Shown one piece after another: positions 11,418 to 29,298 of a DNA stretch of 53,110 bases. The notes below the pieces were generated by a model, which saw nothing but the letters and a program-made list of their open reading frames with translations, was not told where the DNA came from and searched no databases. Location: assembly GCA_001871765.1 (NCBI GenBank), contig MNVN01000003.1, positions 1-53,110 on the forward strand, read 5' to 3'. How positions within the stretch are numbered: position 1 is the stretch's first letter; every line of letters starts with the position of its first letter. Source of the DNA: Candidatus Nomurabacteria bacterium CG1_02_43_90. Its GTDB lineage: Bacteria; Patescibacteriota; Minisyncoccia; Phycocordibacterales; UBA1550. Both the position numbers and the translations under genes were made by a program.

Positions 11418-13532
11418 GTGGCTACTAACTACCCCATGTACCTCTACGATAAAAATCGCATCACGTATTTTGCAGAGACGGACCGTCGCAATAAACGCAT
11501 TCCTTTTGGTATCAAAGCAGAAGACCGCACGCGCCACATGTATATCATTGGGAAGACGGGTATGGGGAAGTCTACCTGCATTGAAAACATGGTCGTGCAA
11601 GATATTCGGAATGGGGAAGGGTTTGCTTTCATTGACCCGCACGGCAAGTCTGCCGCGCTTCTCCTTGATTATATCCCGGAGGACCGCTTGAAAGATGTGG
11701 TGTACTTTGCACCGTTTGATGTTGATAACCCGATCTCTTTTAACGTGATGGAGGATGTGGGTCCTGACAAACGCCACCTCGTTGCAAACGGTCTCATGAG
11801 TGCCTTCAAAAAGATTTGGGGGCCGGAAACTTTTTCTGCACGTATGGAGTACATTCTCATGAATGCCCTCCTTGCGCTCCTTGAGTACCCTGAGTCAACA
11901 CTTCTGGGGGTGAGTCGTATGCTTACGGACAAGGTCTATCGAAAGAAGATTGTTGATAACGTGAAAGACCCCTCGGTACGCGCATACTGGGTTGATGAAT
12001 TTGCAAAATACAGCGAGAACTATGCAAAGGAAGCCGTTCCTGGTATCCAAAACAAACTCGGTCAATTTACTTCAAACCCTCTCATTCGTAACATTATCGG
12101 ACAACCAAAATCATCTTTTGATTTACGCAAGATGATGGATGAACGCAAGATTTTGATCGTGAATCTCTCGAAGGGGCAACTCGGGGAAGGGAATGCCGCT
12201 CTTTTAGGAGGTATGATTATTACTAAGATTTATCTTGCCGCAATGTCGCGCGCAGATTTGACGGAAGGAGAGCTGAAAAAGCTCCCTAATTTTTATATGT
12301 ATGTGGACGAATTCCAGTCCTTTGCGAATGAATCTTTTGCTGATATTTTGTCGGAGGCACGTAAGTATAAACTTGCACTTACCGTCGCACACCAATACAT
12401 CAAACAGATGGATGAAAAAGTTGCGGATGCAGTTTTTGGTAACGTGGGCACCCAAATCATGTTTCGTGTTGGCGCACCTGATGCAGAGGTCTTGGAAAAA
12501 GAATATGCACCCGTGTTTACCGCGGAGGACATGGTGAGTCTCGGTTTTACACAGATATACTTGAAGCTCATGATCGACGGTGTTGCCTCGCATCCTTTTT
12601 CTGCGGTGACGTTGGGGCCTATCGCTCCTCCTAAAAAATCTTTGCGCGAAGAAGCACTCGCTCTGTCCCGTTCTTCGTATGGTCGCCATCGAGAAGAAGT
12701 CGAAAAGGCCATCGCTGATTGGTATATGTCGGGGGGTAGTGAGGGTTCATCTGAGCCCACTCGCGAGCGACCTGACTCACGTGGAGAGCATGCACCACGT
12801 CCAAGCACACAGCCTTCACGAGCCCCTATTTCTCCTGTCGATGCTGAGGCTATTCGTGAACGGTACTCTGCGCAACCTCGCCAGAATGTTGCCGTTACTG
12901 AAAAACAACATCAGTCACCACAAAGTCCTGCAAAACACCAAGCATCATCGACAAAACCTGGAGAAAAAACTTCGAAAGGGCTACCCGATTCAATAAGTGC
13001 TTTGCAAAAACAAGGAATTCCGGTATCTAAAAATATTGAAACAAGTGGACCTTCTTCAGCAAAGATGTCATTTCAGAACGATAAGCTCGAGAAACCCTTT
13101 GCTCAGGCATTTAAAGATTTACCTAAAATCGATGAACTTGAAGGTCAGATAAGGGAAAATGAAGAGCCTCAGTCGGTGAGTCTTTCGGCTCTCGCACAAC
13201 CAGCTTCAGGGAATAAAAATGGAGTGATTGATTTTACAAAAAATAAAAATCCGCGACCAGAGAGCTTGGGAAGTTTGAAGGCAGCACTCGCTGATGTTTT
13301 AGTGAAGGAAAAGAAATCAACGATACCACCACTTCCTTCAACCCCCAACAAAACCTTTGTTAACGATGAAGCAAAGCACGACCTTCCCGAAAAGAATAAA
13401 GAAGAAGATGTTTCCTCAGAGAAAAAACAAGATATTTTTAGAGAGCCAGTTCCTCCAGAAAAAAAAGAAGAGTCAAAAGTAAAAGAGGTCCCCGAGGATG
13501 TCCTTATGGCACTTTTGCGCGGAGATAACTAA
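11418..13532 (+). CDS. VirD4/TraD-like type IV coupling-protein-family P-loop ATPase with a long low-complexity C-terminal tail
   Basis: Walker A GKTGMGKST and a Walker B-like YMYVDEFQSF. The conserved ARKYKLALTVAHQY block is typical of TraD/TraG DNA-transfer ATPases. The last ~270 aa are S/P/K/E-rich. The start (GTG 11418 versus ATG 11436) is uncertain. Confidence 0.75.
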   Translation: MATNYPMYLYDKNRITYFAETDRRNKRIPFGIKAEDRTRHMYIIGKTGMGKSTCIENMVVQDIRNGEGFAFIDPHGKSAALLLDYIPEDRLKDVVYFAPFDVDNPISFNVMEDVGPDKRHLVANGLMSAFKKIWGPETFSARMEYILMNALLALLEYPESTLLGVSRMLTDKVYRKKIVDNVKDPSVRAYWVDEFAKYSENYAKEAVPGIQNKLGQFTSNPLIRNIIGQPKSSFDLRKMMDERKILIVNLSKGQLGEGNAALLGGMIITKIYLAAMSRADLTEGELKKLPNFYMYVDEFQSFANESFADILSEARKYKLALTVAHQYIKQMDEKVADAVFGNVGTQIMFRVGAPDAEVLEKEYAPVFTAEDMVSLGFTQIYLKLMIDGVASHPFSAVTLGPIAPPKKSLREEALALSRSSYGRHREEVEKAIADWYMSGGSEGSSEPTRERPDSRGEHAPRPSTQPSRAPISPVDAEAIRERYSAQPRQNVAVTEKQHQSPQSPAKHQASSTKPGEKTSKGLPDSISALQKQGIPVSKNIETSGPSSAKMSFQNDKLEKPFAQAFKDLPKIDELEGQIRENEEPQSVSLSALAQPASGNKNGVIDFTKNKNPRPESLGSLKAALADVLVKEKKSTIPPLPSTPNKTFVNDEAKHDLPEKNKEEDVSSEKKQDIFREPVPPEKKEESKVKEVPEDVLMALLRGDN

Positions 13533-13533
13533 C

Positions 13534-14973
13534 ATGAGAACGATTGGAGCCACTTTATTTTTTCTTTTTGCATTTGTTGGTCACGTCTCTGCTTCCGTTG
13601 TTATTAACGAGATCGCATGGATGGGTACTGCTGTCTCCCCGTCGAATGAATGGATAGAAATTGCGAACACGGGGAATACACCAAGTGATCTTAATGGATG
13701 GACACTCTCTCTCGAAGGGAAAAAAGACATTATTCTTTCGGGGAGTATTGCAGGAGGAGGGTATTATTTGATCGAGCGTACTGATGACACTACGGTACCA
13801 AATATTCCTGCTGACCTCATTTCATCATTTGGTACCGGGATACCGAATACCGGAGCGGTGCTCTCACTTAAAGATACACAAGGTACCGTAGTTGACCGCG
13901 TAGACGGCTCGAATGGTTGGAATATTGGCGGTAATATAGCGGGGGACAATACGACCAAGGAGACAGCACAGCGTGGGGCGAATGGTTGGTACACCAGCGC
14001 TCCTACACCGCGAGCACTAAATGGAGGAGCCCAAAATAATATTGTCACGAATAGTCCTTCGGTCACGGACAATACTACGAATACTACGCCCTTCGCATCA
14101 CCATCTTCAATAAGCGCTTCGTTTCCTGTTGACCCACAAATTTTTGCAGATGCAGGGACGAGAGAGCGCACGATTTCAGCAGGCGCAACCGTCACTTTCC
14201 TAGGTCGCGTATTTGGACTCAAAAAAGAACCTATCGAAAATGCACGCATATCATGGTCGTTTGGTGACGGAGGAATGACGGATGGTACAAGTGTCTCTCA
14301 TATTTTTTATTACCCTGGGGACTATATCGTAGTTTTGGATGCTTCTTCTGGATACTACAGTGCTTCGGATCGTGTATCTGTTCATGTGGTGACACCTGTC
14401 CTTTCTTTACGCACGGGCGGTGACGAAGCGCGCTCTTTTATTGCGCTTGAAAATGAAGGAAGCGATGAAGTTGATTTGTCTCTCTGGCAGATTGAAGGTG
14501 CAGGAAAAATTTTTATACTTCCGCAACACACGATTGTAGGGGCGCGGAAAACGCTCACGCTTCCTTCTGAGATTACCGGGATCGTATCGCCAAAAGAAAG
14601 CATTGTTTTTCTTCGTTTCCCAAATGGTACACGAGTTGAACCTAACCAGTATCTTGCTCCGCCTACTCCCGCACAAAAAATGAAGGTTGAGACCATTCCA
14701 ACATCTCAAGCCTCCGCTGTTGTTTCGCGTACGGTACTTTCTGATACAGAGAACGCCTCACAAGAAGCTGTTGCAATAGGTGCTTTTGACGACACTACTC
14801 CTTCCCTTGAGGGTGCTACCACCGAACGCCTATGGCCATGGTATGTAGGCGCTGCTTTCTTGGCCCTTTTTGCAATCGTCGGCGCACATTTTGCGCGTGA
14901 ACAAAAAAACGACGAAAAACGACGCCTTACCGCGGATGATTTTGAGATTGAGGAGGATAAAGACCCTTTTTAG
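13534..14973 (+). CDS. Secreted lamin-tail-domain (LTD) + PKD-domain protein with a C-terminal membrane anchor
   Basis: Signal-like MRTIGATLFFLFAFVGHVSA. LTD signature VVINEIAWMG..NEWIEIANTG..LNGWTL. PKD-like SWSFGDGG..YPGDYIVVLDA. C-terminal hydrophobic helix. I chose ATG 13534 over the upstream ORF-track start at 13498. Confidence 0.75.
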   Translation: MRTIGATLFFLFAFVGHVSASVVINEIAWMGTAVSPSNEWIEIANTGNTPSDLNGWTLSLEGKKDIILSGSIAGGGYYLIERTDDTTVPNIPADLISSFGTGIPNTGAVLSLKDTQGTVVDRVDGSNGWNIGGNIAGDNTTKETAQRGANGWYTSAPTPRALNGGAQNNIVTNSPSVTDNTTNTTPFASPSSISASFPVDPQIFADAGTRERTISAGATVTFLGRVFGLKKEPIENARISWSFGDGGMTDGTSVSHIFYYPGDYIVVLDASSGYYSASDRVSVHVVTPVLSLRTGGDEARSFIALENEGSDEVDLSLWQIEGAGKIFILPQHTIVGARKTLTLPSEITGIVSPKESIVFLRFPNGTRVEPNQYLAPPTPAQKMKVETIPTSQASAVVSRTVLSDTENASQEAVAIGAFDDTTPSLEGATTERLWPWYVGAAFLALFAIVGAHFAREQKNDEKRRLTADDFEIEEDKDPF

Positions 14974-15031
14974 TAAACTCTGGTTTTTTTGTCTAATGTG
15001 TGGTATTTTTTCGGTAGTTGTTTTTTAGATA

Positions 15032-15610
15032 ATGAAGGGGGTTAAGATGACTGCGAACAAAGAGCCACAACCGCATCTTTCACGGAAGATAAGAGCTTCC
15101 TTGGACAAGGTATGGTGTCTGTGGAGAACCATCAATGAAATAAAACGAGATATTGTTTCTTCTTGCCTTGTGTACCGCTTGTATCATTGTTGCATGTTGT
15201 CGTTTTTCTTGCAAAGATTCGCGCGCGAAAAACGGGAGCTTTTTAAACTGATCGAAGATGAGAGTCACAACGATTTCCATCTGGTATTTTTTCTGGAGAT
15301 TGGCGAAGTTCTCTATTCTGTCGGGGAGTTTGAAGAAGCAATCAAATGTTTTGACAAGGTGATTAAGGGTATTGGATATTACAATTTTGATGCCAGCGTG
15401 CAAGCAATCATGGGGAAAATTGAGAGTGAGATTGCGCTTCACGAGTGGGACATTTTTAGGAGCTCTAAAGTTTTGTCAGAAATCGCACACCTTTGCGACA
15501 CGGTTAGGCAGGATCTTCGTGTGGTGAGCGATGAAGTCCGCTTTCTTACTGAGAAGCGCCTTACACATATTGTGTCGCTTATAGAGAACAATTATAGGCT
15601 CAGTGTTTGA
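15032..15610 (+). CDS. Hypothetical helical (TPR-like) protein
   Basis: 192-aa ORF with no recognisable family. An alternative start at 15047 is preceded by AAGGGGG. Confidence 0.45.
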   Translation: MKGVKMTANKEPQPHLSRKIRASLDKVWCLWRTINEIKRDIVSSCLVYRLYHCCMLSFFLQRFAREKRELFKLIEDESHNDFHLVFFLEIGEVLYSVGEFEEAIKCFDKVIKGIGYYNFDASVQAIMGKIESEIALHEWDIFRSSKVLSEIAHLCDTVRQDLRVVSDEVRFLTEKRLTHIVSLIENNYRLSV

Positions 15611-15662
15611 TCATTCAGTTCTTGTACGATCGCCGGACTTATCCAGCGGTTTTTTTGTTGGT

Positions 15663-16361
15663 TCAGTTTTTCTTAAGTATCATCAAAAAGTTTTCTTCAC
15701 CACTCGGGCGACGAATCACTTCAATTTTTTCTATTGCGAGACCTGCTTGGCGCGCAAGAGAAGCAAGCTCGCGTTTTGAAAGTGCATGCACGAAACGCGC
15801 ATTCTGTTCCTTTCCAAACTTAAGAAAGGCGTCACCAAAATCAAGGCGTGACCTTCTCGTTATCTTTTTAAAAACATGCGCTAGTATGATACGAGGCTTC
15901 GAATGCCAGACGTTCCATGCCGTGAGAACGATGAGGCTCCCTGGTCTTACCATACGGGCCATTTCACGAAGAAACTGCACGCGATAGGCACGTGAGGGAA
16001 TATGGTGGAGCACCGCAAAGGAGACGACTGTTTCGAATGAGTTGTCAGAAAAAGGAAGTGCGAGTGCATCGCCGACAAAAAATGTCGTGCTGGGTCGCTT
16101 TCGATATCGGTCCCGCGCAATCGCAATGAGCCCTTCAGAAAAATCAATCCCGGCGTAGGTTATTTCTTTGTCATCGAGTGCTCCGAGGAAGCGACCATTA
16201 CCACATCCGACATCAAGGATGCGAGCTTTTTTGGGGATAAGGTCAACGATAAAAGAAAGTTCATCCCAGAATTTTCCGCGCGTACGCGAGAAGTCATCGG
16301 TGATTTTTTCATACCCCGCGCGCGACTGTGCGAGGATTTGATTTGCATATTCTTGTTTCAT
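15663..16361 (-). CDS. Trm9/ALKBH8-type class I SAM methyltransferase (putative tRNA cm5U34 methyl-esterifying enzyme)
   Basis: YEKITDDFSRTRGKFW, ILDVGCGNGRFLG, DALALPFSDNSFETVVSFAVLHHIPSR and RPGSLIVLTAWNVW are co-linear with the Trm9 blocks Y..IA.HFS.TR.K.W, DVGCGNGKYL and ISIAV.HH. Divergent from elp3. Confidence 0.7.
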   Translation of the reverse strand: MKQEYANQILAQSRAGYEKITDDFSRTRGKFWDELSFIVDLIPKKARILDVGCGNGRFLGALDDKEITYAGIDFSEGLIAIARDRYRKRPSTTFFVGDALALPFSDNSFETVVSFAVLHHIPSRAYRVQFLREMARMVRPGSLIVLTAWNVWHSKPRIILAHVFKKITRRSRLDFGDAFLKFGKEQNARFVHALSKRELASLARQAGLAIEKIEVIRRPSGEENFLMILKKN

Positions 16362-16443
16362 AGGTAGGATAAGGTAGAATAGTGAAGATTAAATAGTAAA
16401 TAGTAAAATATTTTAAAAACTTTCAACTTTTTCTTACTCTACC

Positions 16444-18399
16444 ATGCTTTTTGCAGACATAAAAACAGACCGCGATCTTGATCTACTCAAACGTCGCATT
16501 GTAGCGGACGATGCTATTTATGCTCGTTTTTTGGAGGTGAGATGTAAACTATATGACCCCGAGGGTAAACTCGCTCCCGAGGGGCATTTTGAGCCTAAAA
16601 AAGGTACTTCGGGGCGTCGTTTGCCCACTAATGCGGAAATGCTCGCTTTGTATAAAGATGGTCTTGAAAAAGGGGAGGAAACGGTTAATACCGACGCTGA
16701 GCTCGTCATGAAGAAATTCAAGGTTCGTAGCAACTCGGGGGTTGCCGTGGTGTCGCTTTTGACGAAGCCATTTCCTTGCCCAGGTCGCTGTACGTATTGC
16801 CCAACTGAGGAGCGTATGCCCAAAAGCTATCTTTCGAAAGAACCCGCAGCGGCGCGCGCACTCGCGAATGATTTTGACCCCTATGCACAGGTGACCAACC
16901 GCTTGCGTGCACTCGCTATGAACGGGCATGCAACCGACAAAATTGAAATGATTGTGATCGGAGGAACGTGGAGTTTCTACCACCCCGTGTATCAAGAAGA
17001 ATTTCTTGCCGAATGTTTTCGTGCGTGCAACAACTTCGGGTTAACGGAAGATATGCAAACAAAAAAAATGGCGAAGTCGCTCCTTGAACTGCAGTCAGAT
17101 AACGAAACTGCACCAACGCGAATCATCGGACTTTCCATTGAAACACGCCCCGACTATATTACCAATTATGAATTGGAACGCTTACGCGCACTCGGGGTTA
17201 CCAAAGTCGAGATTGGCGTGCAACACCTCGATGATGAAATTTTGAAAAAAACAAAACGCGACATGAAGATCGTGCAAGTCAAAGAGGCAACGGAGCGTTT
17301 GCGGAATGCAGGGTTTAAGGTGGTGTACCACATGATGCCCAACCTACCGGGAAGTAGTATCGAGCAAGATATCAAAATGTTTGGCGACCTTTTTTCAGGC
17401 GAGGACTATCACCCCGATATGCTCAAGGTGTACCCGTGTATGGTTCTCGAGGGAAGTGAACTTTTTAATACTTGGCAGGAAGGCCTGCCTGCGTCGCGAC
17501 CGGGATTTTTTTCTACGTACGTTATACTTTGTGATGACAATAGTTTTTATATAGGTCAAACAGGTGATTTGGAAAAACGTTTCCAAAAACATTTAGCAGG
17601 TACTGGAGCAGAGCACACAAAAAAACATCGCCCTCTCAAGGTCATTCATTATGAAGAATACTCAACAAGAGAAGAGGCTGTTAAGCGTGAGAAGTTTTTG
17701 AAAACTGGGTTTGGGCGGAAATGGGTAAAGAGAGAATACGTGGCTGGCCGTACGCGACAGGCAGGGGGCTTTGTGCCCTACACCGACGAGGAACTTGTAC
17801 ACGTTCTCGTTGAAGCAAAAAAACAAGTACCGAAGTACGTTCGTATCATCCGCGTGATACGTGACATACCTGCTACCTATATTCAGGCAGGAAGTAAAGT
17901 TTCCAACTTGCGACAATGGCTGGAAGTGGATATGCGAAAAAATAATTGGCGTTGTAAATGTATTCGCTGTCGTGAAGTGCGCGGAATGGTTGTGGACCCC
18001 AAGGATTTCCCCCTTACCCGTACCGAGTATCGCACCAAAACAGGGAGAGAATTTTTCTTATCATTTGAGGAAGCACACGAGGGGAAGCTTGCTTCATTTC
18101 TTCGTTTGCGCCTGCCCGATAATCACGGAAAGGAATTTGAGAAGGGGACACTGGCAGTCTTGAAAGATGCGGCACTCGTGCGTGAGCTCCATACCTACGG
18201 GCGCATGGCAACGATAGGAGAGGAGGGGACACAGAGCCAGCACCTCGGCTTTGGGAAACAGCTTCTCATCGAAGCGGAGCGTATTGCGAAAGAAGCAGGC
18301 TACAAAAAAGTCGCTATCATTGCGGGTATCGGCGTCCGCGAGTATTACAAAAACCGCGGCTATTCGCTTGAGGGGAGCTATATGGTGAAGTATGTGTAG
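16444..18399 (+). CDS. elp3: Elp3-type radical SAM / GNAT acetyltransferase (tRNA wobble uridine carboxymethylation) with an inserted GIY-YIG domain
   Basis: Radical SAM cluster motif CPGRCTYCP. Elp3 blocks IETRPDY, EIGVQH, YPCMVLEGSELF.. and VRIIRVIRDIP. C-terminal GNAT with QHLGFGKQL. 651 aa. Confidence 0.85.
   Translation: MLFADIKTDRDLDLLKRRIVADDAIYARFLEVRCKLYDPEGKLAPEGHFEPKKGTSGRRLPTNAEMLALYKDGLEKGEETVNTDAELVMKKFKVRSNSGVAVVSLLTKPFPCPGRCTYCPTEERMPKSYLSKEPAAARALANDFDPYAQVTNRLRALAMNGHATDKIEMIVIGGTWSFYHPVYQEEFLAECFRACNNFGLTEDMQTKKMAKSLLELQSDNETAPTRIIGLSIETRPDYITNYELERLRALGVTKVEIGVQHLDDEILKKTKRDMKIVQVKEATERLRNAGFKVVYHMMPNLPGSSIEQDIKMFGDLFSGEDYHPDMLKVYPCMVLEGSELFNTWQEGLPASRPGFFSTYVILCDDNSFYIGQTGDLEKRFQKHLAGTGAEHTKKHRPLKVIHYEEYSTREEAVKREKFLKTGFGRKWVKREYVAGRTRQAGGFVPYTDEELVHVLVEAKKQVPKYVRIIRVIRDIPATYIQAGSKVSNLRQWLEVDMRKNNWRCKCIRCREVRGMVVDPKDFPLTRTEYRTKTGREFFLSFEEAHEGKLASFLRLRLPDNHGKEFEKGTLAVLKDAALVRELHTYGRMATIGEEGTQSQHLGFGKQLLIEAERIAKEAGYKKVAIIAGIGVREYYKNRGYSLEGSYMVKYV
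17485..17769 (+). other. In-frame GIY-YIG (YhbQ/UPF0213-like) nuclease domain inserted into Elp3
   Basis: ~95 aa lie between ..LFNTWQEG and FVPYTDEE. The segment reads YVILCDDNSFYIGQTGDLEKRFQKHLAGTGAEHTKKHRPLKVIHYEEYSTREEAVKREKFLK, the GIY-(10)-YIG..R..H..G..E..K pattern. Confidence 0.75.
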
Positions 18400-18426
18400 T
18401 TACTTTGGGGGCTGAGCATAGAATTA

Positions 18427-19485
18427 CTAATGATTATTTTCAGATTCTTTAGGTAGCAATTTTAAAGAAAGGATCATCCTCAATTTTTTGTCATAAAAAT
18501 AAGCTATATAGCTCAACATAATAGCTACTATCATCATAATTCCACCGCGCAATTCAAGTGAGCCGTAAGATTCAAAATATTTAATAAGCGTGTTGCCTAC
18601 TGTTTGATGTATCAAATATAAGGGGTAAGTTATTCCCCCAATAACCGCACTGATTACTAGCCATCTAGGCGAATGTATTTTAGGAGATAAGTAAACAAGA
18701 ATTATTGTTGTAATAAAAAATAGGGGATGTAGCCACATCACAAAATTAGTGTCTATTGGATTGGGTGAAAGATATGGAGGTAACGCCCGAGCTGAAATAT
18801 ATGTTGAATAGACTGCGACTATAAAAAGAAATCCGTAGTCATAGCATTTTTGCTTAAGCGAAGAGTAGTCAGTACTTACTATTATGGAAAGCGTTATCCC
18901 GAACAAGAAGTATGATGCGTGTCTAACAAGTAAAGTTTTTGCGATAAAATTATTATCAATAGTAAGTAGAAATGCTACAGTACTAACAACTAACCAACCT
19001 AGTGTAAACGTGCGAATGTTTTTCCATGAGAAAAAATACACAAATAATCCTATCGCTACATAAAAGATAAGCTCAACAACAAGAGACCAATACGCGGCGT
19101 CCACAAGCCTTAGGTACCCAAAAGCATTACTTAACTTTTCCCCAAGCATCGTCATACTAATAAGGTACTCTTGGAATAAAACAGGATTACCATTCGGTAT
19201 TAGTAACGTGAAAATATAAGTGGCAGTACAGATCATCCAAAACAAAGGGAAAAGCCTAATCCATCTTTTTAGGGCAAATTTCTTGATAGAAGTACGGGAG
19301 ATGCTTTGAGAGATTACAAAACCACTAATTATAAAAAAAATAGGGACACCAAGGTTGCCATATCTGTACCACGCTAGGTCTGGAGACCACCAGAGGAAAT
19401 AGTGAAAACTCATCACCCAAAAAGCTGCAAAGAAGCGAAGAATATCTAAAAGAGAATAATGGGTTTTCATGTTTGATATCAACAA
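18427..19485 (-). CDS. Acyltransferase family 3 (membrane O-acyltransferase)
   Basis: 352 aa, polytopic. N-terminal LDILRFFAAFWVMSFHY is typical of acyltransferase_3. Confidence 0.8.
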   Translation of the reverse strand: MLISNMKTHYSLLDILRFFAAFWVMSFHYFLWWSPDLAWYRYGNLGVPIFFIISGFVISQSISRTSIKKFALKRWIRLFPLFWMICTATYIFTLLIPNGNPVLFQEYLISMTMLGEKLSNAFGYLRLVDAAYWSLVVELIFYVAIGLFVYFFSWKNIRTFTLGWLVVSTVAFLLTIDNNFIAKTLLVRHASYFLFGITLSIIVSTDYSSLKQKCYDYGFLFIVAVYSTYISARALPPYLSPNPIDTNFVMWLHPLFFITTIILVYLSPKIHSPRWLVISAVIGGITYPLYLIHQTVGNTLIKYFESYGSLELRGGIMMIVAIMLSYIAYFYDKKLRMILSLKLLPKESENNH

Positions 19486-19525
19486 ATAGCCTAATATCTA
19501 TACTTTATGATAGTATCATATACAT

Positions 19526-20299
19526 ATGAAACAAAAAATAATACAGAGCATAAGAATAATTATGGGGTTTAATATAGTCTCTGTTTTTACGCTTATAACA
19601 AGCGGATACCACTCCTTTTTAAAAGCTTGTTACCGGGCTTTTGTTGCAGCTCACATGGTAGACATAACGGAGTTGTCTGCGATACCTCAAATATCCCTTG
19701 ATCAGATATTGGGAAAGGTTAGACCAACGATACATATGACGATTATGTCTAGTGAAAATGGTAGAGTTCCTTCGGATCAAGCTATCGCGATAATTGCAAT
19801 TCTGGCAAAAGAGCAGCCTAAAGAGGTTTTAGAGATAGGAACTTTTTTTGGGCATACGACAAGACTTATTGCAGAAAACCTACCAAATGGAATTATCCAT
19901 ACACTAGATCTTCCTCAAGAGTTTAACTCAAAAGGAGACCTAAAAAGTATTCCAAAAGATGATTCCCATCTTATCGAAAGACGTATTGTTGGGCGTGAAT
20001 TCATAGGGAGTATTTACGAGAAACAAATCAGACAACATTTTGCAGACACGGCTACTTGGGATTTTAGTGAGGAAGGGGAGCCAACCTTCTTCTTTATTGA
20101 CGGTTCTCATACGTATGAGTATTGTAAAAATGATTCGGAAAAATGTTTTACGCTATGTAAGGGGAGAGGTGTGTTTTTGTGGCATGATTGCGATTTTGGT
20201 CATCCTGGTGTTGTAAAATTTATAAATGAATGGAGAACTATGGGGCGTGATATCGTTAGAATTGAAGGAACCCCGATTGCCTACTGGAAAAGTTTTTAA
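19526..20299 (+). CDS. Class I SAM-dependent methyltransferase (Methyltransf_24-like)
   Basis: LEIGTFFGHTT and FFFIDGSHTYEYCKNDSE blocks. A TGaTAGTAT -10 element lies 9 nt before the ATG. Confidence 0.7.
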   Translation: MKQKIIQSIRIIMGFNIVSVFTLITSGYHSFLKACYRAFVAAHMVDITELSAIPQISLDQILGKVRPTIHMTIMSSENGRVPSDQAIAIIAILAKEQPKEVLEIGTFFGHTTRLIAENLPNGIIHTLDLPQEFNSKGDLKSIPKDDSHLIERRIVGREFIGSIYEKQIRQHFADTATWDFSEEGEPTFFFIDGSHTYEYCKNDSEKCFTLCKGRGVFLWHDCDFGHPGVVKFINEWRTMGRDIVRIEGTPIAYWKSF

Positions 20300-20308
20300 T
20301 CTTTTAAT

Positions 20309-21211
20309 ATGACCAATATCAGTAAAGAGGAAAATAAGAAAGTGGTTCTGTATTTACCTGGGTCTGTTGGGGATAATTTCATAGTGCTATCTTTGGCTCA
20401 ACAATTAAAAGATAATAATATTAAAGGTATCGTAATTGCAGTTAATAATTCTCTAGACACATATCGCTCAATAAGTAAGGACTTAGCTGTTTCTGATGAA
20501 GTTTTTAGTGCTAGGAATATTTTTTTCCTCCTTAAACTGTTCTTTCAATCTTTTTTTAAAGATACGTACTTTATTTTTTTCCTTACGCCAGATTCAAAAC
20601 TAATTAGCTATACATCGTTCGTCTTTCATTATCTTTCTCGAGTAAAGATGATCTCATTTTTATTTACAGATATACACAAGAAGCCTCATTTTTTTGGAGA
20701 CAACATTATGTGTAGTGAAAAAAACACAGTACAAGAATTATTCAGTTTTATTTTTGACCGTTTAAACATTAAAAGTGTGGCAAAAAACCCTTATTTAGAG
20801 CTACCTGTATTCAACAGAGGTAACTATTCTGTTCTCCATCTATATCCGTCTGCCCCAGATAGAAAAATAGAAAAGGAGGACATTAAAAAGGGGATAGTAG
20901 ATTACTATAAAGAACATATGAACATGGCCACCACCATGGTTATTACTGGAGCCCCCTCAGATATAGTAAAAGATATAAGTCTAGAAGATTATATCCCTAA
21001 TGAATTTAATTATTTAGATCTTAGAGGGAGGTTGAGCCTAGTGTCGCTTATGTATGTTATTCATGATGCCGAGAGTTATTTTGGGGTGCATACTGGGCCA
21101 ACTCATATCGGCGCTATGTTTAACAAGAGAGGGATTGCTTTTTACAAAAAAGAGAGGCCTGTTGTCAGCGTTCGTTATAATAGTAACTATAAAGTAATTT
21201 CCCTCGACTAA
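20309..21211 (+). CDS. Hypothetical protein, possibly glycosyltransferase family 9-like
   Basis: 300 aa. The C-terminal LSLVSLMYVIHDAESYFGVHTGPTHIGAM weakly resembles the GT9 donor-binding region. Low certainty. Confidence 0.4.
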   Translation: MTNISKEENKKVVLYLPGSVGDNFIVLSLAQQLKDNNIKGIVIAVNNSLDTYRSISKDLAVSDEVFSARNIFFLLKLFFQSFFKDTYFIFFLTPDSKLISYTSFVFHYLSRVKMISFLFTDIHKKPHFFGDNIMCSEKNTVQELFSFIFDRLNIKSVAKNPYLELPVFNRGNYSVLHLYPSAPDRKIEKEDIKKGIVDYYKEHMNMATTMVITGAPSDIVKDISLEDYIPNEFNYLDLRGRLSLVSLMYVIHDAESYFGVHTGPTHIGAMFNKRGIAFYKKERPVVSVRYNSNYKVISLD

Positions 21212-21216
21212 TTTTT

Positions 21217-22461
21217 ATGATTTTTTTTACTAAACTAAAAAAAATACTTGATAAGTCTTTCTTAAAAGAATTATCATGGTACACAATTGGACAAACTACC
21301 GTTCAAATTTTTTTTGCTCTTGGTGTTATCATTACTTCTAGATATCTTGGACCAGACAATCTTGGTTTATATAGTTTTGTCCAAAATTACTTGAGCGTGT
21401 TTATGCTTGTGGCCGTTGGAATGGATTTTTATTTCACTTGGAGAATTGCAAAAAGTGAAGATAAAATTAAAGACCTTAAAGAGTATTTTGGCCACAAGAT
21501 ATACATCACAAGTTCTTTCTCTATCTTAGGAATCATTCTCGCGTGGAGTATTTTACCATCAGATGTTGCGTTGATGTCAACGATATTATGCGCCCCATTA
21601 TTCCTGAGCTCATTTACGGCCTTTTTCCAATACGCAATCGTTATCAATAAAGCACGAATAATTGCTCTAACGCAAATATTGTCGTCGTTGACCCTTTTTC
21701 TCATGAAAGTATTTCTCGTGAATTTTCATGCCCCTCTCCTTGCTTTTGTAGCTGTTAGTGCAGGCGATACGTTTTTTATGGTAACTTTATTGGCTTTATT
21801 TTTTTTGAGTAACCCTGAAATCAGAAAACCTTTTTTTTATGCAAGTTTTCCAAGTATTTTTTCGACAATAAAATTTTTGTACGCTATTCGTTTTATGGTC
21901 ATTTCATTAGCTCTGTGGCAATTACTATTGCGCGTAGATCAACTAGTTTTAGCGACTTTTTCGAATGCGTATACTCTTGGTATTTACTCGGCAGCGGTAA
22001 AAATTACAGAAGTACCCAACTTCTTTGCTGGAGGGATTTATGCCTCTCTTGTCGCCCATATTGCTAGTACTGCACTAAGAAAAGACGATCATTCAAAAAA
22101 TAGTATTCGTAAAGTTATGTTACTGTACTTTAGTTCGGGTACGGTTATTTCGATTCTTACTATAATTACCGCCCCGTTTATTGTGAGCTTACTTTACGGA
22201 CCCAAGTTTATTGAAGTAACCCCTATTTTAAGAGTATACGCACTTTCCATCCCAGGTATGTTCCTGGTATATCATTATTTGGCTATTTACGCGGTACAAG
22301 GAAAACACTTACAGCAGGCATTTATTTTTAGTTTAGGTATTATTATAAATATAGTATTAATTTATATATTAACACCAATTTTTGGCATTACGGGTACTGC
22401 TTTTGCCACCGTTATCTCCTACACATTTATGTCAGGCGTTTTCTACTTACATATGCGTTAA
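21217..22461 (+). CDS. Wzx-like oligosaccharide flippase (MOP superfamily)
   Basis: 414 aa with about 12 hydrophobic helices and typical polysaccharide-biosynthesis-protein topology, within a glycan cluster. Confidence 0.8.
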   Translation: MIFFTKLKKILDKSFLKELSWYTIGQTTVQIFFALGVIITSRYLGPDNLGLYSFVQNYLSVFMLVAVGMDFYFTWRIAKSEDKIKDLKEYFGHKIYITSSFSILGIILAWSILPSDVALMSTILCAPLFLSSFTAFFQYAIVINKARIIALTQILSSLTLFLMKVFLVNFHAPLLAFVAVSAGDTFFMVTLLALFFLSNPEIRKPFFYASFPSIFSTIKFLYAIRFMVISLALWQLLLRVDQLVLATFSNAYTLGIYSAAVKITEVPNFFAGGIYASLVAHIASTALRKDDHSKNSIRKVMLLYFSSGTVISILTIITAPFIVSLLYGPKFIEVTPILRVYALSIPGMFLVYHYLAIYAVQGKHLQQAFIFSLGIIINIVLIYILTPIFGITGTAFATVISYTFMSGVFYLHMR

Positions 22462-22487
22462 AAGGTTTTTAATGATATACTTTTTTT

Positions 22488-23057
22488 ATGAATCCAATAG
22501 CATCTTTTTTTGCAAAAGTTTTTATTTATTTTTGGTATAAAAAAGGCGAATATTTTTTTTGGAGAAGTAAAAAATATGTAACTAATTGGGGTGAAGGTAC
22601 TTACGGCACTCCGTACCTGATTTCGTATGACAAAAGAAGTACTTTGTCAGTTGGTGCATATTGCTCAATTGCTAGTAGGGTGAGCATACTTTTGGGAGCC
22701 AATCATTTATTTGGAAGAATAACGACATATCCATTAAGTCTAATAAATGAAGATATGACCGTTACTGATGCCAGTGAACCAGGGTCTGTTGTTATTGGGA
22801 ATGATGTCTGGGTTGGTTATGGACCTACTATCATAGGACCTGTTTCTGTCGGAGATGGTGCAATAATCGCTGCGGGGACAGATGAGGTACATGCAAAAAT
22901 TATAAAATATAGGTTACCTGAAGATCAGATTAATGACATGGTCGCTATTGCTTGGTGGGGGTGGGGTAGAGACAGTATTAAAAAAAGAGAGAAGGATATA
23001 TACTCTAAAGATTTTAATAAATTTATTAAAAAATATAAAAATGAAGCAGGAGAATAA
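22488..23057 (+). CDS. Hexapeptide-repeat (left-handed beta-helix) O-acetyltransferase, CatB/Vat-like
   Basis: [28 protein letters not shown] repeats and a C-terminal [19 protein letters not shown] block. A TGaTATACT -10 element lies 6 nt before the ATG. Confidence 0.75.
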   Translation: [189 protein letters not shown]

Positions 23058-24030
23058 AAAATGTCCGATATGTGGTGCACCCGCCTCTGTTCTTTTTAAT
23101 GACTTTAACGGGTACATCGAGGGGAAAACTTTTGACTTATATGAATGCAGTGTTTGCATGGCCTCTTTTGTCGACCCTCTTATCTCTGAAGCTAAGTTGT
23201 ATAATTATATTTACAATTTAGGGGATAAAGCACCTGGATATGAGAGGTATTTGAGATATGCCCAACTAGTTACTGAATTTAAAAATCCCCTCAACATTTT
23301 GGCGAATGCGGAAAGCGTCTATTGGGGGGTTAAAAATGCCTTAGAAAAATATTTTAAAAATAAAGACATATCGATATTAGAAATAGGAACAGGTCTCGGA
23401 TATCTAACCTATTCTTTGAATAAAGCAGGGTATAGTACTAAAGGACTGGATATCTCAGAAGAAGCGGTGGCCAGGGCAAATAAACGTTATGGTAATTATT
23501 ATACGGCGGGAGACTTATTTGAGATTGTAAAAAAGAACATCGATAAATATGATTGCGTAATCATGACAGAATTGATTGAACACGTAGAAGACCCCAAGGC
23601 TTTTATTGGGGCAGCTTTTTCTTTACTGAAAGAAGGTGGAAAATTAATTTTAACAACACCTAATAAATCCACTGCTCCTCAAGGTACTGTTTGGCAAAGT
23701 GATATACCCCCCATTCATTTATGGTGGCTGGCAGAGGATTCTATTTTGTATATAGCAAAATCATTTAATAAAAAATGTGAATTTATAGATTTTACCGCAT
23801 ACACCTCTATGTTTTATGAAGATAAAGCAGTCGTTCCGATGGAATTCTTGCAAGCCAATTTACCAAGAATGGACACAGAAGGTAATTTATTTCCGAAACA
23901 TGTGAACAATAGTTTAAAGTCTAGATATCTTAGTATTAAGATGAGGTACGCGCTCTCTTATTTAAGGAGAAGGTTTAAAACAAAAAGTCCCTCGAGTAGA
24001 TCAGCAACAATGTGTGCTGTAATGTATTAA
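23041..24030 (+). CDS. Class I SAM-dependent methyltransferase with an N-terminal Cys-rich (zinc-ribbon-like) segment
   Basis: CPICG..CSVC, then ILEIGTGLGYLTYSL (motif I). I chose ATG 23041 instead of the upstream ORF-track start. Confidence 0.7.
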   Translation: MKQENKKCPICGAPASVLFNDFNGYIEGKTFDLYECSVCMASFVDPLISEAKLYNYIYNLGDKAPGYERYLRYAQLVTEFKNPLNILANAESVYWGVKNALEKYFKNKDISILEIGTGLGYLTYSLNKAGYSTKGLDISEEAVARANKRYGNYYTAGDLFEIVKKNIDKYDCVIMTELIEHVEDPKAFIGAAFSLLKEGGKLILTTPNKSTAPQGTVWQSDIPPIHLWWLAEDSILYIAKSFNKKCEFIDFTAYTSMFYEDKAVVPMEFLQANLPRMDTEGNLFPKHVNNSLKSRYLSIKMRYALSYLRRRFKTKSPSSRSATMCAVMY

Positions 24031-24035
24031 TTTTT

Positions 24036-25046
24036 ATGCAATCAACTAACGTAGCCGTCGTCACCGTTACCTATGGCAATAGATGGAATTTTTTATCACA
24101 ACTTGTTGGTGTGGTTATGAATGATCCTTATGTAACGAAGTTAATTATTGTTGATAATGGGTCAAAGAATAAAAAAGAAATAGAAGAGGGCGTAAAAAAA
24201 TATGGAGATAAGGTTGTCATTCTACGGCAAGAAAAAAACATAGGGTCAGCCGGTGGTTTTGCTCGCGGGCTTGCTTATGCAAGAGGTGTTGCTTGTGACT
24301 ACATTTTTATGTTGGATGATGATAATGTGCCCGAAGAAGGAGCGATAGAAAAGTTTCTTGAGTTAAGAAAATTATTTTTAAACGAAAAGGTAGTTTTGGT
24401 GGGAAGCAGGCCTCTTTTACTTGGGAATACTGATATCTTTTATAAAAAAATAATAACAGATACTTCTTTGAAGTTTACTTTTTTTGAAGTTTTTAGTTTT
24501 GCTAAATTTTTTAATTTCCTGAAACTATTTAGAAGTACTAAAGGTTTAATACGAGGTACATTAATTCCCATTGTGCCCAATGAAAGTTTTATCTATGGGG
24601 GAGCTTTTATCCCCATTGAGGCAGTAAGAGAAGCGCCACTTCCTGACGCGAGCCTTGTTCTTTATGGTGACGATATCGAATATTCTTGGGGTATTAAAAA
24701 ATTAGGGTATGAGTCATATGCTTGCATACGACCAAGGATTAATGATGCCTCTGTTACGTTTAGTGACGGTTCGCATATTTCAGGGTTGTTTGATCCCGGG
24801 ACCGAAATATTCAAGGTATATTACCGCATAAGAAATATGGTACGAATTTCTATCCGTACTACCACACAGGCACAAACCATTCTCTTTTTGAATATTATTG
24901 TGTGGACTTCTGGTTTATGCATTCTTGGTATGTTTAAATACGGAGTTAATCGTAATTATGTAAGGCGGATAAGGATCATTCTACAAGCTGTTTATGGGGG
25001 GTATGAGGTAAACTACAGAACTCCCAAAGAAGCAGAGCTCCCTTAA
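24036..25046 (+). CDS. Glycosyltransferase family 2 (rhamnosyltransferase-like)
   Basis: VAVVTVTYGN, IIVDNGS, MLDDDN (DxD) and YGDDIEYS blocks. I chose ATG 24036. Confidence 0.8.
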   Translation: MQSTNVAVVTVTYGNRWNFLSQLVGVVMNDPYVTKLIIVDNGSKNKKEIEEGVKKYGDKVVILRQEKNIGSAGGFARGLAYARGVACDYIFMLDDDNVPEEGAIEKFLELRKLFLNEKVVLVGSRPLLLGNTDIFYKKIITDTSLKFTFFEVFSFAKFFNFLKLFRSTKGLIRGTLIPIVPNESFIYGGAFIPIEAVREAPLPDASLVLYGDDIEYSWGIKKLGYESYACIRPRINDASVTFSDGSHISGLFDPGTEIFKVYYRIRNMVRISIRTTTQAQTILFLNIIVWTSGLCILGMFKYGVNRNYVRRIRIILQAVYGGYEVNYRTPKEAELP

Positions 25047-25054
25047 CGAGATAG

Positions 25055-25945
25055 CTACTTTTGCACGCAAAGAATGTTTGTTTGCGCCTTGAACCCCTGA
25101 TTAAATGATGAAATAAAATCAACATCATCGACAATTTTCTTCCTTTCCTCATCGAGGTCATATATATCATAATTATTATTGCGTAAAAAAGTGATGATTT
25201 CTTTTTGGTGGGACGGATTTGTCTTTGCGTAATAAAGAGGGGAATATTCTAAGAGTATTTTTGGGTGGTTCTTTTTGATTGTTTCTTCTGCTCCTTTGAG
25301 TACAAAATATTCGTATCCTTCTACGTCTATTTTCATGAAAGAAGGATTTAGAGAGAGGGAATCAAGCGTTACCACCTTGATAGATTCTTTTTTCCCTACT
25401 GCTGAGAAATTAACAATAGAGGATCCTGCGGTGTTGCTTTCGCAAATGTGGATGGTTTCCTTAGATTCTTTTTCTCCAAGAGCTAAAGGCATTACTGTTA
25501 CATTAGCACTTTTGTTTATAGACGTGGATTTCTCAAATTGCTCCCTGAGGAATGAAATTGGTTCAAAGGAGATAACGTTTCCCTTGTCTCCTACAACCTT
25601 TGAAATAAACAAAGAATGATGTCCAATATTTGCACCAATATCTAGTACCGTGTCTCCCTTCTTTATGTTATTCATAATTTCCTTCAGAATATGTGTTTCG
25701 TAACATTTGTAAACATAGAGCCATTTATCGAGATACCCATTCTTAGGGTTTATGTATAATTTATAAGAAAAGCCAAAGTAGTTTAAATTGATTAACGTTT
25801 CCTTTTTAAAATTATAGGCTCGTAATGTGAATACTACAGAAATGCTTTTTGCGATCGTCGCATTATAGATAGCCTTAATGAACGTAAACAAAAAATCTGG
25901 CAGATTTCTCTTTATTATAAATTTTATTTTGCTGGTAGTTTTCAT
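25055..25945 (-). CDS. FkbM-family methyltransferase
   Basis: VLDIGANIGHHSL and MKIDVEGYEYFVLKGA are hallmark FkbM (Methyltransf_21) blocks. Confidence 0.8.
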   Translation of the reverse strand: MKTTSKIKFIIKRNLPDFLFTFIKAIYNATIAKSISVVFTLRAYNFKKETLINLNYFGFSYKLYINPKNGYLDKWLYVYKCYETHILKEIMNNIKKGDTVLDIGANIGHHSLFISKVVGDKGNVISFEPISFLREQFEKSTSINKSANVTVMPLALGEKESKETIHICESNTAGSSIVNFSAVGKKESIKVVTLDSLSLNPSFMKIDVEGYEYFVLKGAEETIKKNHPKILLEYSPLYYAKTNPSHQKEIITFLRNNNYDIYDLDEERKKIVDDVDFISSFNQGFKAQTNILCVQK

Positions 25946-26005
25946 TGTTTTTGTTTGATTGTCATTTAGTATAAAATATAACTCAGAAAATCACTAATAC
26001 TAAAA

Positions 26006-26770
26006 TTAACAAAGAGCCCGTACAAGACGAATAAGTATGTATAGGTTAAAAGAGGGGTAGTTTAGTAATTTCTGGTGGCATCCTTCTCGGAGTAAATTCA
26101 AAATTATTTTTTGTTTTTCCTTGTAGTCTTTTTTTCTAAAATTCAATCCAGTGGCTTTGTCATAGCCATCCGTTAGAGTGCTCTTTTGGTCGACATAGTA
26201 CATTTTTTCGTGCAAGCCGACCTGAAAGAAAAAAAGCCACTCCTCTCCTTGTTTTATTTTTTTTGAAAACTGTATGTTAGAAAGTAGCGATGTTTGTATA
26301 CATTGAGTAACGTCCCCTTGTATCCTTTTGAGTATTAAATATTCGTATGCATAAGAATAGGCAGTTTTATTTCTAGGAGCTGATGTTAGTGAAGTCCCGT
26401 TTTCATAAGCACGGTTTGTAATGAACCATCTTTTATCTGGATAGGTAGAAACGATGGTGGTAAAGGTCTCAAGGGTATCTTTCGAGAACCAATCATCATC
26501 ATCCAAAAAGATAACCCAGTCAGAATCTTTTGAGAGGGAATCGAGACCGCGGTTTCGAGAATAGTTTACCCCCTCGTTCTCTTTATTTTTTAGATAAACA
26601 ATACGCGGGTCAGTGAACGTTTTCTCGAGCGAAGAATAACTTGTATCATCAGGGGAATCATTCACAATGACCATTTCCCAATCGGTATGCGTTTGCTGAA
26701 GCACAGAGGTAATTGCCCGTGAAAGTTTGTCTGCTCGTTTGTAGGTGGGGGTGATAATACTAAATTTCAT
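26006..26770 (-). CDS. Glycosyltransferase family 2
   Basis: MKFSIITPTYKRADKL.., VIVNDSPDD and FLDDDDW (DxD). Confidence 0.8.
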   Translation of the reverse strand: MKFSIITPTYKRADKLSRAITSVLQQTHTDWEMVIVNDSPDDTSYSSLEKTFTDPRIVYLKNKENEGVNYSRNRGLDSLSKDSDWVIFLDDDDWFSKDTLETFTTIVSTYPDKRWFITNRAYENGTSLTSAPRNKTAYSYAYEYLILKRIQGDVTQCIQTSLLSNIQFSKKIKQGEEWLFFFQVGLHEKMYYVDQKSTLTDGYDKATGLNFRKKDYKEKQKIILNLLREGCHQKLLNYPSFNLYILIRLVRALC

Positions 26771-27680
26771 AGGCGTGTTGTTTAGGCAAACAAAGAATAT
26801 CGCACTGCGATTTTTCCTTTGTAAAAGGAGTAAGAAATTCCTCTGTTGAAGTTATTTTTTTCATATAGTCTTCTACATCATACATAGCATAGTCAAGTTC
26901 CCGGAGAAGTGAGAGGATTGCCCCCCCATCGGTGCCTCCTTTCTCGGAATATAGTTTCCCAGAGAATTCAAGGACAATAATAGGTTTATGTTTTTTGAGC
27001 GTTTTTTTTATCCCCACTAACACTTCATATTCATATCCTTCCACATCAATTTTCACCATATCAATGCGAGAGAGGCTCTCCAGTAGCTCATCCCCTCGTT
27101 TTATGGTGATACTAATTTTTTCACCCTCTTTTCCCTTAGAGGAAACGATAGAAGACCCCCCGACGTTATTTTTTTCAACATAAAGAGACTCCTCTTTGTT
27201 TTCTTTACCGAGTGCAACGTTGTGTGCGTGAACAATACGTTCAAAATGGTTAATTTTTAGACTGTCCAAAAATTGTTCATAAATGTAAGGGATTGGCTCA
27301 AAGGAGTAGACCTTACCTGTGTCACCCACGATACTTCCTGCAAGCATACTATGTTGTCCAATATTTGCCCCAATGTCCACAAACGTACTCCCTTTCTTGA
27401 GATAGGTCACGAGGAGGTCAAGAATTTGTGGCTCATAAGTTCCATAAAGGAAAATATGTTTATCGATGAATCCGTTTTTTGGAGAGATAAAAAGTGAAAA
27501 TTTATGTCCATGATGTGCAGTTTCGATAGTGCGGTAATTATTGAAGCGTTTAAGACGGAGTGCATCGAGGATATCTACAAGCTTCCTAAAAATAGTTTGC
27601 CAAAGAGCAAGGATTAAATCAAAAATGCTTTTTGGTAAAAGTTTCTTGAGGGAGTATTTTATTTTGCTTCTATTTATCAT
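26760..27680 (-). CDS. FkbM-family methyltransferase (paralog of 25055-25945)
   Basis: FVDIGANIGQHSM and VKIDVEGYEYEVLVG. Co-linear with the other FkbM copy. Overlaps the downstream GT2 by 11 nt. Confidence 0.8.
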   Translation of the reverse strand: MINRSKIKYSLKKLLPKSIFDLILALWQTIFRKLVDILDALRLKRFNNYRTIETAHHGHKFSLFISPKNGFIDKHIFLYGTYEPQILDLLVTYLKKGSTFVDIGANIGQHSMLAGSIVGDTGKVYSFEPIPYIYEQFLDSLKINHFERIVHAHNVALGKENKEESLYVEKNNVGGSSIVSSKGKEGEKISITIKRGDELLESLSRIDMVKIDVEGYEYEVLVGIKKTLKKHKPIIVLEFSGKLYSEKGGTDGGAILSLLRELDYAMYDVEDYMKKITSTEEFLTPFTKEKSQCDILCLPKQHAYEI

Positions 27681-27685
27681 ACGTA

Positions 27686-28384: not shown

Positions 28385-28432
28385 CGTGTGTGGATTTAGT
28401 ATAGCACTGTGTTACAATAATTCATTATACTC

Positions 28433-29239: not shown

Positions 29240-29298
29240 AAAAAATACCTAACCTTTTTTCTTTGTTTTCATGATTTTTATGGTACGATAACCACATT

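Follow-up and report, generated by a model that had tools for sequence, protein, structure and literature searches.

A divergent elp3 and Trm9-like gene pair in Candidatus Nomurabacteria, with a putative in-frame mobile GIY-YIG element nested in elp3

Does a bacterium carry, as two adjacent genes, both steps of an Elongator-type modification of the tRNA wobble uridine (U34), and what is a nuclease domain doing in the middle of one of the two enzymes? These questions are raised by a 53,110-nucleotide (nt) stretch of contig MNVN01000003.1 (assembly GCA_001871765.1) of Candidatus Nomurabacteria bacterium CG1_02_43_90, hereafter called the window, in which elp3 lies divergent to a gene for an S-adenosylmethionine (SAM)-dependent methyltransferase (Table 1). 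An earlier reading of the sequence alone (the original prediction) had taken this pair for a complete two-step pathway. The reading that we favour, and to which we assign a probability of roughly 0.7, is that the locus is a divergent wobble-uridine module, in which Elp3 would provide 5-carboxymethyluridine (cm5U34) and the Trm9-like enzyme would convert it to 5-methoxycarbonylmethyluridine (mcm5U34), and that a selfish 282-nt element is nested in its elp3 gene.

The longer open reading frame (ORF), at 16444-18399 on the plus strand and 651 amino acids (aa) in length, is by its sequence unambiguously Elp3, with radical-SAM and GNAT domains, as originally predicted. It scores 509.5 bits against TIGR01211, the curated Elp3 model with a cut-off of 350, in two stretches that are split by an insertion overlooked in the original prediction; among solved structures, its matches are the Elp3 proteins of Methanocaldococcus infernus (MinElp3; ~1e-110) and Dehalococcoides mccartyi (DmcElp3; ~1e-101). 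The alignment with MinElp3 consists of two collinear blocks, with residues 88-347 of the window protein corresponding to MinElp3 24-279 and residues 441-649 to MinElp3 279-490, and the ORF is about 94 residues too long, the excess being aa 348-441. The Fe-S cysteines C112/C116/C119, the zinc cysteines C504/C506/C509 and the acetyl-CoA motif QSQHLGFG are intact, and Pfam identifies Radical_SAM_C and Acetyltransf_1 in the 3' part of the gene. In its domain order and motifs, as in having no other Elongator subunits, the protein resembles the stand-alone Elp3 of D. mccartyi and M. infernus; it differs from MinElp3 in a GIY-YIG module of 94 aa, placed where MinElp3 residues 279 and 280 adjoin, and in an Fe-S spacing (CX3CX2C) that is shorter by one residue. 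Stand-alone Elp3 is known from some bacterial clades (PMC6367351, PMC13315578), and the earlier description of Elp3 as rare in bacteria was overstated, as the protein is common in Patescibacteria and present in Chloroflexota.

Searches with the 232-aa methyltransferase by itself were dominated by its class. Pfam and NCBIfam returned only generic class I models (Methyltransf_11 and others), none above its curated cut-off, and a single-sequence phmmer search of the PDB placed Trm9 eighth; all close relatives come from Patescibacteria and carry the NCBI label "class I SAM-dependent methyltransferase", while JGI automatic names are TRM9 or ALKBH8 for four relatives and "UbiE" for some. By contrast, when the PDB was searched with a family profile built from an alignment of 38 relatives, the top rank went to Trm9 of Yarrowia lipolytica (5cm2_Z; 3e-30, spanning positions 26-227 of the 231 in the profile), ahead of a runner-up at 8.5e-24 and of the bacterial wobble-uridine esterase-type enzyme CmoM at 7e-11, and hhalign aligned the family with the Trm9 chain from end to end (99.8% probability, E 8e-28, 182 aligned columns). 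The co-linearity with Trm9/ALKBH8, C-terminal region included, that had been claimed from the blocks FSRTRGKFW, DVGCGNGRFL and VVSFAVLHH, all of which are found in the translation, is thus borne out by profile.

The conserved residues point in the same direction. The columns that are invariant in the 38 relatives (Y17, R28, D73, H119, H120, W149 and R189), together with N224, which is kept in at least 90% of them, correspond to Y18, R29, D72, H115/H116, W145, R241 and N271 of yeast Trm9 (ScTrm9). Mutation of ScTrm9 R29, D72, H116, W145, R241 or N271 abolished or crippled activity and led to zymocin resistance, while the H115A change caused only mild impairment and Y18 was not among the mutated residues (PMC4678810). 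Seven of nine functionally important Trm9 residues are kept in the window protein. With Trm9-Trm112 of yeast, ALKBH8-TRMT112 of humans and HvoTrm9-Trm112 of Haloferax volcanii, the protein has in common a class I fold (its AlphaFold2 (AF2) model has a predicted local distance difference test score of 93.8), full-length alignment with Y. lipolytica Trm9, an N-terminal Y..IA..FS.TR...W, DxGCGNG, AV(L/I)HH, a Trp after beta-4, a C-terminal R-Y-x-H plus N, and a genomic tie to a cm5U-forming enzyme; it differs from eukaryotic Trm9 and ALKBH8 in being bacterial, in lacking the eukaryotic Trm9 insertion and the AlkB and RRM domains, and in having no Trm112 detected nearby. Because of its profile and hhalign rank and its conserved residues, we file the protein under the Trm9/ALKBH8 family, a placement that is supported by these comparisons and from which its activity would follow.

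To assess the pairing, one genome per species was scanned with the methyltransferase alignment and the fetched loci were searched by tblastn with Elp3; matches covering at least 190 methyltransferase residues were counted as full-length relatives, and pairs with fewer than 600 nt between the two matches as directly divergent. Elp3 was found within the 8-kb flanks at 27 of 40 loci with a full-length relative, directly divergent at 18, and several of the 13 loci that lacked it were contig ends. At 40 control loci with a partial, generic methyltransferase match, by contrast, Elp3 was found once, and that match proved to be a truncated alignment of a true relative. Paired loci carry Patescibacteria labels (Paceibacterota, Saccharibacteria, Magasanikiibacteriota, Woesebacteria and Peregrinibacteria) as well as Chloroflexota labels (Anaerolineae, Caldilineaceae and Aquidulcis), and some come from bins labelled Gammaproteobacteria; every close metagenomic relative that was looked up has the divergent pair. 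The adjacency is hence not accidental and, since it is conserved, provides strong genomic-context evidence that both enzymes act in one pathway.

In that pathway, Elp3 would use its radical-SAM and acetyltransferase domains to produce 5-carboxymethyluridine at tRNA U34, and the Trm9-like enzyme would carry out a SAM-dependent methyl esterification of the cm5U34 carboxyl, yielding mcm5U34. The two-step Elongator-type reading of the original prediction is therefore supported by the family membership of both proteins and by their conserved pairing, with cm5U/mcm5U as the predicted substrate and product. That prediction placed the pathway in place of, or beside, the bacterial MnmE/MnmG route; mnmE and mnmG were not among the 30 large ORFs of the 53-kb window as read with Pfam, which is a statement about the window and not about the genome. 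Physical clustering of the two mcm5U-pathway genes has a precedent in Sulfolobus solfataricus (Grosjean et al. 2008, as cited in PMC6144793 and PMC5372719), and mcm5U has been demonstrated in Haloferax (PMC6144793). While the Sulfolobus cluster is archaeal, the pair in the window is bacterial, divergent, and conserved in Patescibacteria and Chloroflexota; a literature search for a bacterial Trm9 or a bacterial Elp3-Trm9 pair returned the archaeal precedent only. The pathway type is known, and the pair adds a new, bacterial member to it.

The insertion that lengthens Elp3 has neither a start nor a stop codon of its own and is continuous with the Elp3 frame. Its only Pfam match is the GIY-YIG family PF01541, at 1.7e-16, and among solved structures it comes nearest to 1ywl and 1zg2, both UPF0213 proteins. 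Its place is the loop that connects the radical-SAM domain with the linker/KAT half, and in the AF2 model it folds by itself, in the order beta-beta-alpha-alpha-beta-alpha-alpha, with the Elp3 halves on either side both predicted well. In the closest Elp3 (GCA_036170975.1), the host part is 92% identical and the neighbouring methyltransferase 90% identical, and there is a gap of exactly 282 nt at the site: the empty site reads GAG GGC/GGG TTC (slash, junction), and the filled site GAA GGC[CTG...GGG]GGC TTT (brackets, element). The closest Elp3 relatives, with 92%, 90% and 82% identity, all lack the insert; of the 120 nearest Elp3 proteins, only three carry it (that of the window, P0291 and P0300), in all three at the identical site. 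Module and host similarities are incongruent, as the window protein and P0291 are 76.6% identical in the module and 64.9% in the host part, while P0291 and P0300 are 64.9% identical in the module and 77.0% in the host part. The recurrence of identical sites in homologous genes and these incongruent similarities suggest homing-like spread between alleles. No other copies or remnants of the element were found in the window. The copy in the Elp3 protein P0291 (L170:3001-4944) has eroded termini (CCGCCTGCGCCTCGTCCC ... CGCGGCAGGTAGG) and may be immobilised.

The same module occurs in unrelated genes. When 1.84 billion representative proteins were searched exhaustively by HMMER with the 94-residue query, 495 matches fell below 1e-10, and most of the best 150 cover query positions 1-94 in full, inside longer proteins that reach 1101 aa. 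As judged by reading the proteins and from Pfam, many hosts are HsdS, with recurrent sites such as QDPND^EPASxLLERI; further hosts include one HsdR, an HsdM tail, a DUF1156 DNA methylase, an ArgRS of Ca. Taylorbacteria and two trigger factors. The bounds of the module are always LPAPRPG to GRTRQAG, its length is exactly 94 aa in 62 of 77 extracted copies, and Y12, Y22, G24, R32, H36 and E69, the catalytic and metal-binding residues of GIY-YIG enzymes, are invariant in 16 aligned modules. One HsdS has two copies, and another has an internally deleted copy of 24 aa directly before a full copy. A metagenome scan yielded 78 DNA copies, nearly all of 282 nt and with lengths that are multiples of three; all but one are free of internal stops, and the host ORF is open in-frame on both sides. 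Hosts range from 33 to 67% GC. No copies were found on IMG/VR viral contigs, and PLSDB plasmids held only distant stand-alone YazA-type genes, the nearest annotated relatives, at less than 47% identity.

Some copies have features of their own. The DUF1156 DNA methylase P0216 (1101 aa) holds, besides its GIY-YIG module at aa 131-224, a nested DUF559/Vsr-like endonuclease domain at aa 565-669, so a second kind of in-frame nuclease passenger may exist. A variant 285-nt copy (L155:91-375) lies in the same HsdS-like ORF as a canonical copy, with a divergent 5' end (TTGCCTAAAAAG) and a repeated 3' end (CTGCCTGCCGGCAGGCAGGCAGG). In P0123 (L084:5001-5444), the module is fused to the C-terminal tail of HsdM only, upstream of an intact hsdS; because the rest of hsdM is missing, the element-bearing hsdM gene of L084 appears to be truncated.

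At the DNA level, the copies share complementary ends, with the consensus (ga)C/CTGCCTGCGCCGCGGCCGG at the 5' side and CCGGCCGGACGCGGCAGGCAGG/N at the 3' side (slashes, element boundaries). The arms pair over 8 bp, a 2-nt bulge, 5 bp, a 4-nt bulge and 5 bp; in the window copy, helices 1 and 2 are perfect and helix 3 has one A-C mismatch and one G-T pair, and both the minimum-energy and the centroid RNA fold of the element retain the terminal stem. Among 62 distinct copies, standard pairs fill 94.6% of cells, compared to 28-50% when the partner columns are slid, and none of 500 shuffles reaches the covariation score of 0.136 (0.066 for shuffles). Two pairs join third codon positions that are synonymous, one linking Arg CGN to Gly GGN and the other Pro CCN to Ala GCN; each shows 21 double-sided changes and all four Watson-Crick types, and a third pair has gone from C-G to T-A in the lineage to which the window belongs. 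GC content is ~81% in the termini whatever the GC content of the host, and the termini are 70% identical at third codon positions, while in the interior GC tracks that of the host (r = 0.82) and third positions are 38% identical. The DNA ends are conserved far beyond what the protein requires, and this contrast in GC and third positions indicates that the interior has long been adapted to its hosts, while the ends are under constraint at the nucleic-acid level.

Units of 33-36 nt that consist of the two arms only were found at L094:3216-3250 (minus strand), L145:2874-2906 (plus strand) and L145:4559-4594 (minus strand); the reading frame is uninterrupted across the unit at L145:2874. The L145 stretch also holds a dense cluster of CCTGCCTG/CAGGCAGG motifs, which suggests a REP-like repeat population in that genome.

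The element is thus present or absent among near-identical hosts, lies in-frame in unrelated genes, combines an intact nuclease with pairing termini, and has deletion derivatives; with transposons it shares complementary conserved termini, presence/absence polymorphism, multiple contexts and non-autonomous derivatives. We consider the odds somewhat better than even that bacteria harbour a class of mobile element not described so far, of which the insert in elp3 would be an autonomous member: an in-frame GIY-YIG cassette with pairing termini that is carried as a read-through passenger by hosts across phyla, in conserved genes that include those for translation (Elp3, ArgRS and trigger factor) and for restriction-modification, and has hairpin-only derivatives. 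Such a selfish element would be expressed by read-through of the host gene and tolerated as an extra surface domain; it would most probably move as DNA, with its own GIY-YIG nuclease acting structure-specifically on a hairpin or cruciform formed by the termini, and hairpin-only units may be non-autonomous copies that ride on the same nuclease activity.

Several points weigh against the joint reading of a wobble-uridine module with a nested selfish element. On the side of the methyltransferase, ScTrm9 W168 and Y243 are replaced by F182 and V191 in the window protein and its clade (Trp and Tyr are retained at these positions in many more distant family members). Foldseek with the AF2 model puts Trm9 5cm2_Z only tenth, at 1e-13, in a class whose members all look alike; among the top ten, 5cm2_Z has the best target TM-score (0.83) and the lowest root-mean-square deviation (3.4 A). 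Trm9 depends on Trm112 in eukaryotes and Haloferax (PMC6144793), and no Trm112-like zinc-knuckle ORF with two CxxC motifs was found in the window or beside the pair at 24 loci, with a filter that is blind to Asp-liganded forms. On the side of the element, no target-site duplication and no clear target consensus were seen, as the flanks vary save for a frequent C before and G after the element; the 94-aa catalytic domain has no evident DNA-binding module for target recognition; sense-strand G-T pairs (38) are about as common as A-C pairs (34), so that these counts do not distinguish pairing of RNA from pairing of DNA; and the mechanism of movement given above is a proposal. Finally, Elp3 carrying the insert is presumed active from its intact conserved sequence.

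The alternative that survives best, while unlikely, is that the methyltransferase acts with Elp3 on tRNA and yields an end product other than mcm5U, for instance a different ester or derivative, a nucleoside modified further, or a modification on another set of tRNAs, possibly in a Trm112-free manner. The substitutions of W168 by Phe and of Y243 by Val in this clade and the lack of a detected Trm112-like neighbour would fit such a divergence, and Haloferax without Trm9 channels cm5U into other products (PMC6144793). However, the equivalents of R241 and Y18, which in the model contact the cm5U carboxylate, are conserved, as are the other catalytic residues.

For the insertion, a quite unlikely alternative is that the 282 nt are removed from the transcript, with the termini forming a processing helix that joins the exon ends and with nuclease expression as the sole purpose of read-through. 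In keeping with removal at the RNA level, the terminal helix shows compensatory change at synonymous sites and is retained in minimum-energy and centroid RNA folds, G-U pairs are frequent, and insertions occur in essential genes (ArgRS and trigger factor). Yet G-U pairs are no commoner than A-C pairs by the counts just given, the element matches no ribozyme or known RNA family, and 282 coding nucleotides leave no room for one; moreover, bacteria are not known to possess the bulge-helix-bulge splicing endonuclease. None of the 78 copies has a frame break, and lengths are multiples of three, even though a spliced element would need no frame.

It is improbable, in our judgement, that the insertion has inactivated elp3 and that the pathway is broken in this strain. 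A foreign domain of 94 residues does separate two halves that must cooperate, and the KAT and radical-SAM sites are connected by the acetate tunnel (PMC13315578). Against inactivation, the gene has no stops or frameshifts, its host part is 92% identical to the empty orthologue with all motifs intact, AF2 folds the Elp3 halves and the module as separate units, and the same element sits in presumably essential genes.

Two further explanations fare worse. That the methyltransferase is an ordinary small-molecule or lipid enzyme (UbiE/MenG/BioC-like) and a chance neighbour of elp3 would agree with its generic Pfam and NCBIfam matches below any curated cut-off, with the eighth and tenth ranks of Trm9 by phmmer and Foldseek, and with some of the JGI names, but is very improbable: Trm9 ranks first by profile and hhalign, the N-terminal TRxxxW and the C-terminal RYxH...N lid are absent from generic enzymes, the catalytic residues of Trm9 are invariant, and Elp3 adjacency is conserved across phyla and absent for generic methyltransferases. 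Placement in a family such as UbiE/COQ5, with no Trm9 motifs and no conserved adjacency, had been named beforehand as the result that would speak against the Trm9 assignment, and the opposite was found on each count. That the GIY-YIG domain is a stable, functional and non-mobile addition to Elp3, vertically inherited and repeatedly lost, is scarcely tenable, since, for all that the ORF is intact and three divergent Elp3 proteins are occupied at one and the same site, unrelated proteins contain this very 94-aa module along with its DNA termini, the closest relatives lack it, module and host are incongruent, hairpin-only and deletion derivatives exist, and the termini are conserved at synonymous sites.

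Comparison with known systems also sets the element apart. A group I or group II intron was considered and rejected, as there is no Rfam match with E<0.1 in 15500-18600 and all 282 nt are coding. Inteins resemble the element in being selfish, in-frame, without their own start and stop, located at conserved sites of conserved genes, patchy among close relatives and often endowed with an endonuclease; an intein was nonetheless rejected, because there is no Hint domain, the junctions (G/LPAS and RQAG/GF; flanks G/LPA...QAG/G) have no splice nucleophiles, and 94 aa are too few, and the element has paired termini at the nucleic-acid level that inteins lack. With REPIN/REP sequences and their RAYT enzymes, the element shares short GC-rich hairpin repeats alongside a larger copy in which inverted arms surround a nuclease gene; RAYTs are HUH/Y1 enzymes and their hairpin repeats are intergenic, whereas the nuclease here is of the GIY-YIG type and the element lies in-frame inside coding sequence. 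Rickettsia palindromic elements, which Ogata and colleagues are said to have described in 2000 as lying in-frame within protein-coding genes, are likewise palindromic mobile DNA that is translated within the product; they encode no enzyme, while the full-length element encodes a nuclease and has hosts in many phyla. GIY-YIG homing endonucleases (I-TevI and Seg) and the small UPF0213/YazA/YhbQ proteins have the same catalytic fold and residues, and differ in that the element has no DNA-binding domain, is not associated with an intron and is not a free-standing gene. Literature searches for the element concept and for its signature peptides found no description, and one may exist outside the searchable literature; there is a substantial chance that the element represents a new class of mobile element.

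The two divergent ORFs and the 82-nt gap between them have exactly the coordinates originally predicted. Both ORFs begin with ATG, and because homologues begin at the same residues, M(K/R)xEYAN in the methyltransferase and MLF in Elp3, these starts and the spacer that they delimit are credible. In close metagenomic relatives, the spacer is 22-98 nt long. A scan of the locus for consensus promoters and terminators gave counts within chance, with none in the 82-nt spacer.

The window is otherwise an ordinary Patescibacteria chromosome segment, with MurC/D/B, SecA, Obg, GatB and a block for glycan synthesis, and its sole tRNA gene is tRNA-Ile (GAT) at 1991-2067. The glycan block, of low GC content (18427-31221; 34-40% versus ~45% elsewhere), starts directly downstream of elp3 and encodes an acyltransferase, glycosyltransferases, FkbM and other methyltransferases, a flippase and a Wzy-type ligase; the Elp3-Trm9 pair also lies amid glycosyltransferase genes in L001, L170 and L171. 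On the methyltransferase side, 11418-15610 is syntenic with the closest relative, L086, and includes genes for a TrwB/TraG-like coupling ATPase, a lamin-tail/PKD surface protein and a 192-aa TPR-like protein. As the elp3 side of L086 has a RelB/YafQ toxin-antitoxin pair instead, synteny breaks at the 3' end of elp3.

Table 1. Coordinates, within the window, of the gene pair and of the element inserted in elp3 (slash, element boundary).
Feature	Position	Strand	Remarks
Trm9/ALKBH8-family SAM-dependent methyltransferase	15663..16361	-	232 aa; assigned by family profile, hhalign and conserved residues
Spacer between divergent start codons	16362..16443		82 nt, AT-rich; putative site of both promoters
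elp3, 5' part	16444..17484	+	aa 1-347: basic N-terminal region and radical-SAM domain; Fe-S C112/C116/C119
In-frame mobile insertion (putative), minimal GIY-YIG nuclease	17485..17766	+	282 nt, 94 codons, LPASRPG to GRTRQAG; PF01541
Element, 5' terminal arm	17484..17503	+	C/CTGCCTG CG TCGCG ACCGG; pairs with 3' arm
Element, 3' terminal arm	17744..17765	+	CTGGC CGTA CGCGA CAGGCAGG; terminal stem kept in RNA fold, centroid included
elp3, 3' part	17767..18399	+	aa 442-651: central linker, zinc C504/C506/C509, then KAT/GNAT domain

Trm9-type enzymes were thought to be absent from bacteria, and, according to a 2017 review, their genes could not be detected there (PMC5372719). The conserved pair predicts mcm5U-type wobble chemistry in Patescibacteria and Chloroflexota, possibly independent of Trm112, and offers small stand-alone enzymes for mechanistic work. 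The element, for its part, would be selfish DNA that lives inside essential genes without RNA or protein splicing, by being in-frame, small and independently folding; if this is true, it occupies an intein-like niche without protein splicing, or represents a REPIN/RAYT-like system built on a GIY-YIG nuclease. Confirmation would add another nuclease family to the short list of those that move bacterial repeats and would explain some of the "extra domains" in metagenome proteins, and GIY-YIG "fusions" in HsdS, ArgRS, trigger factor and Elp3 would then be parasites rather than functional architectures.

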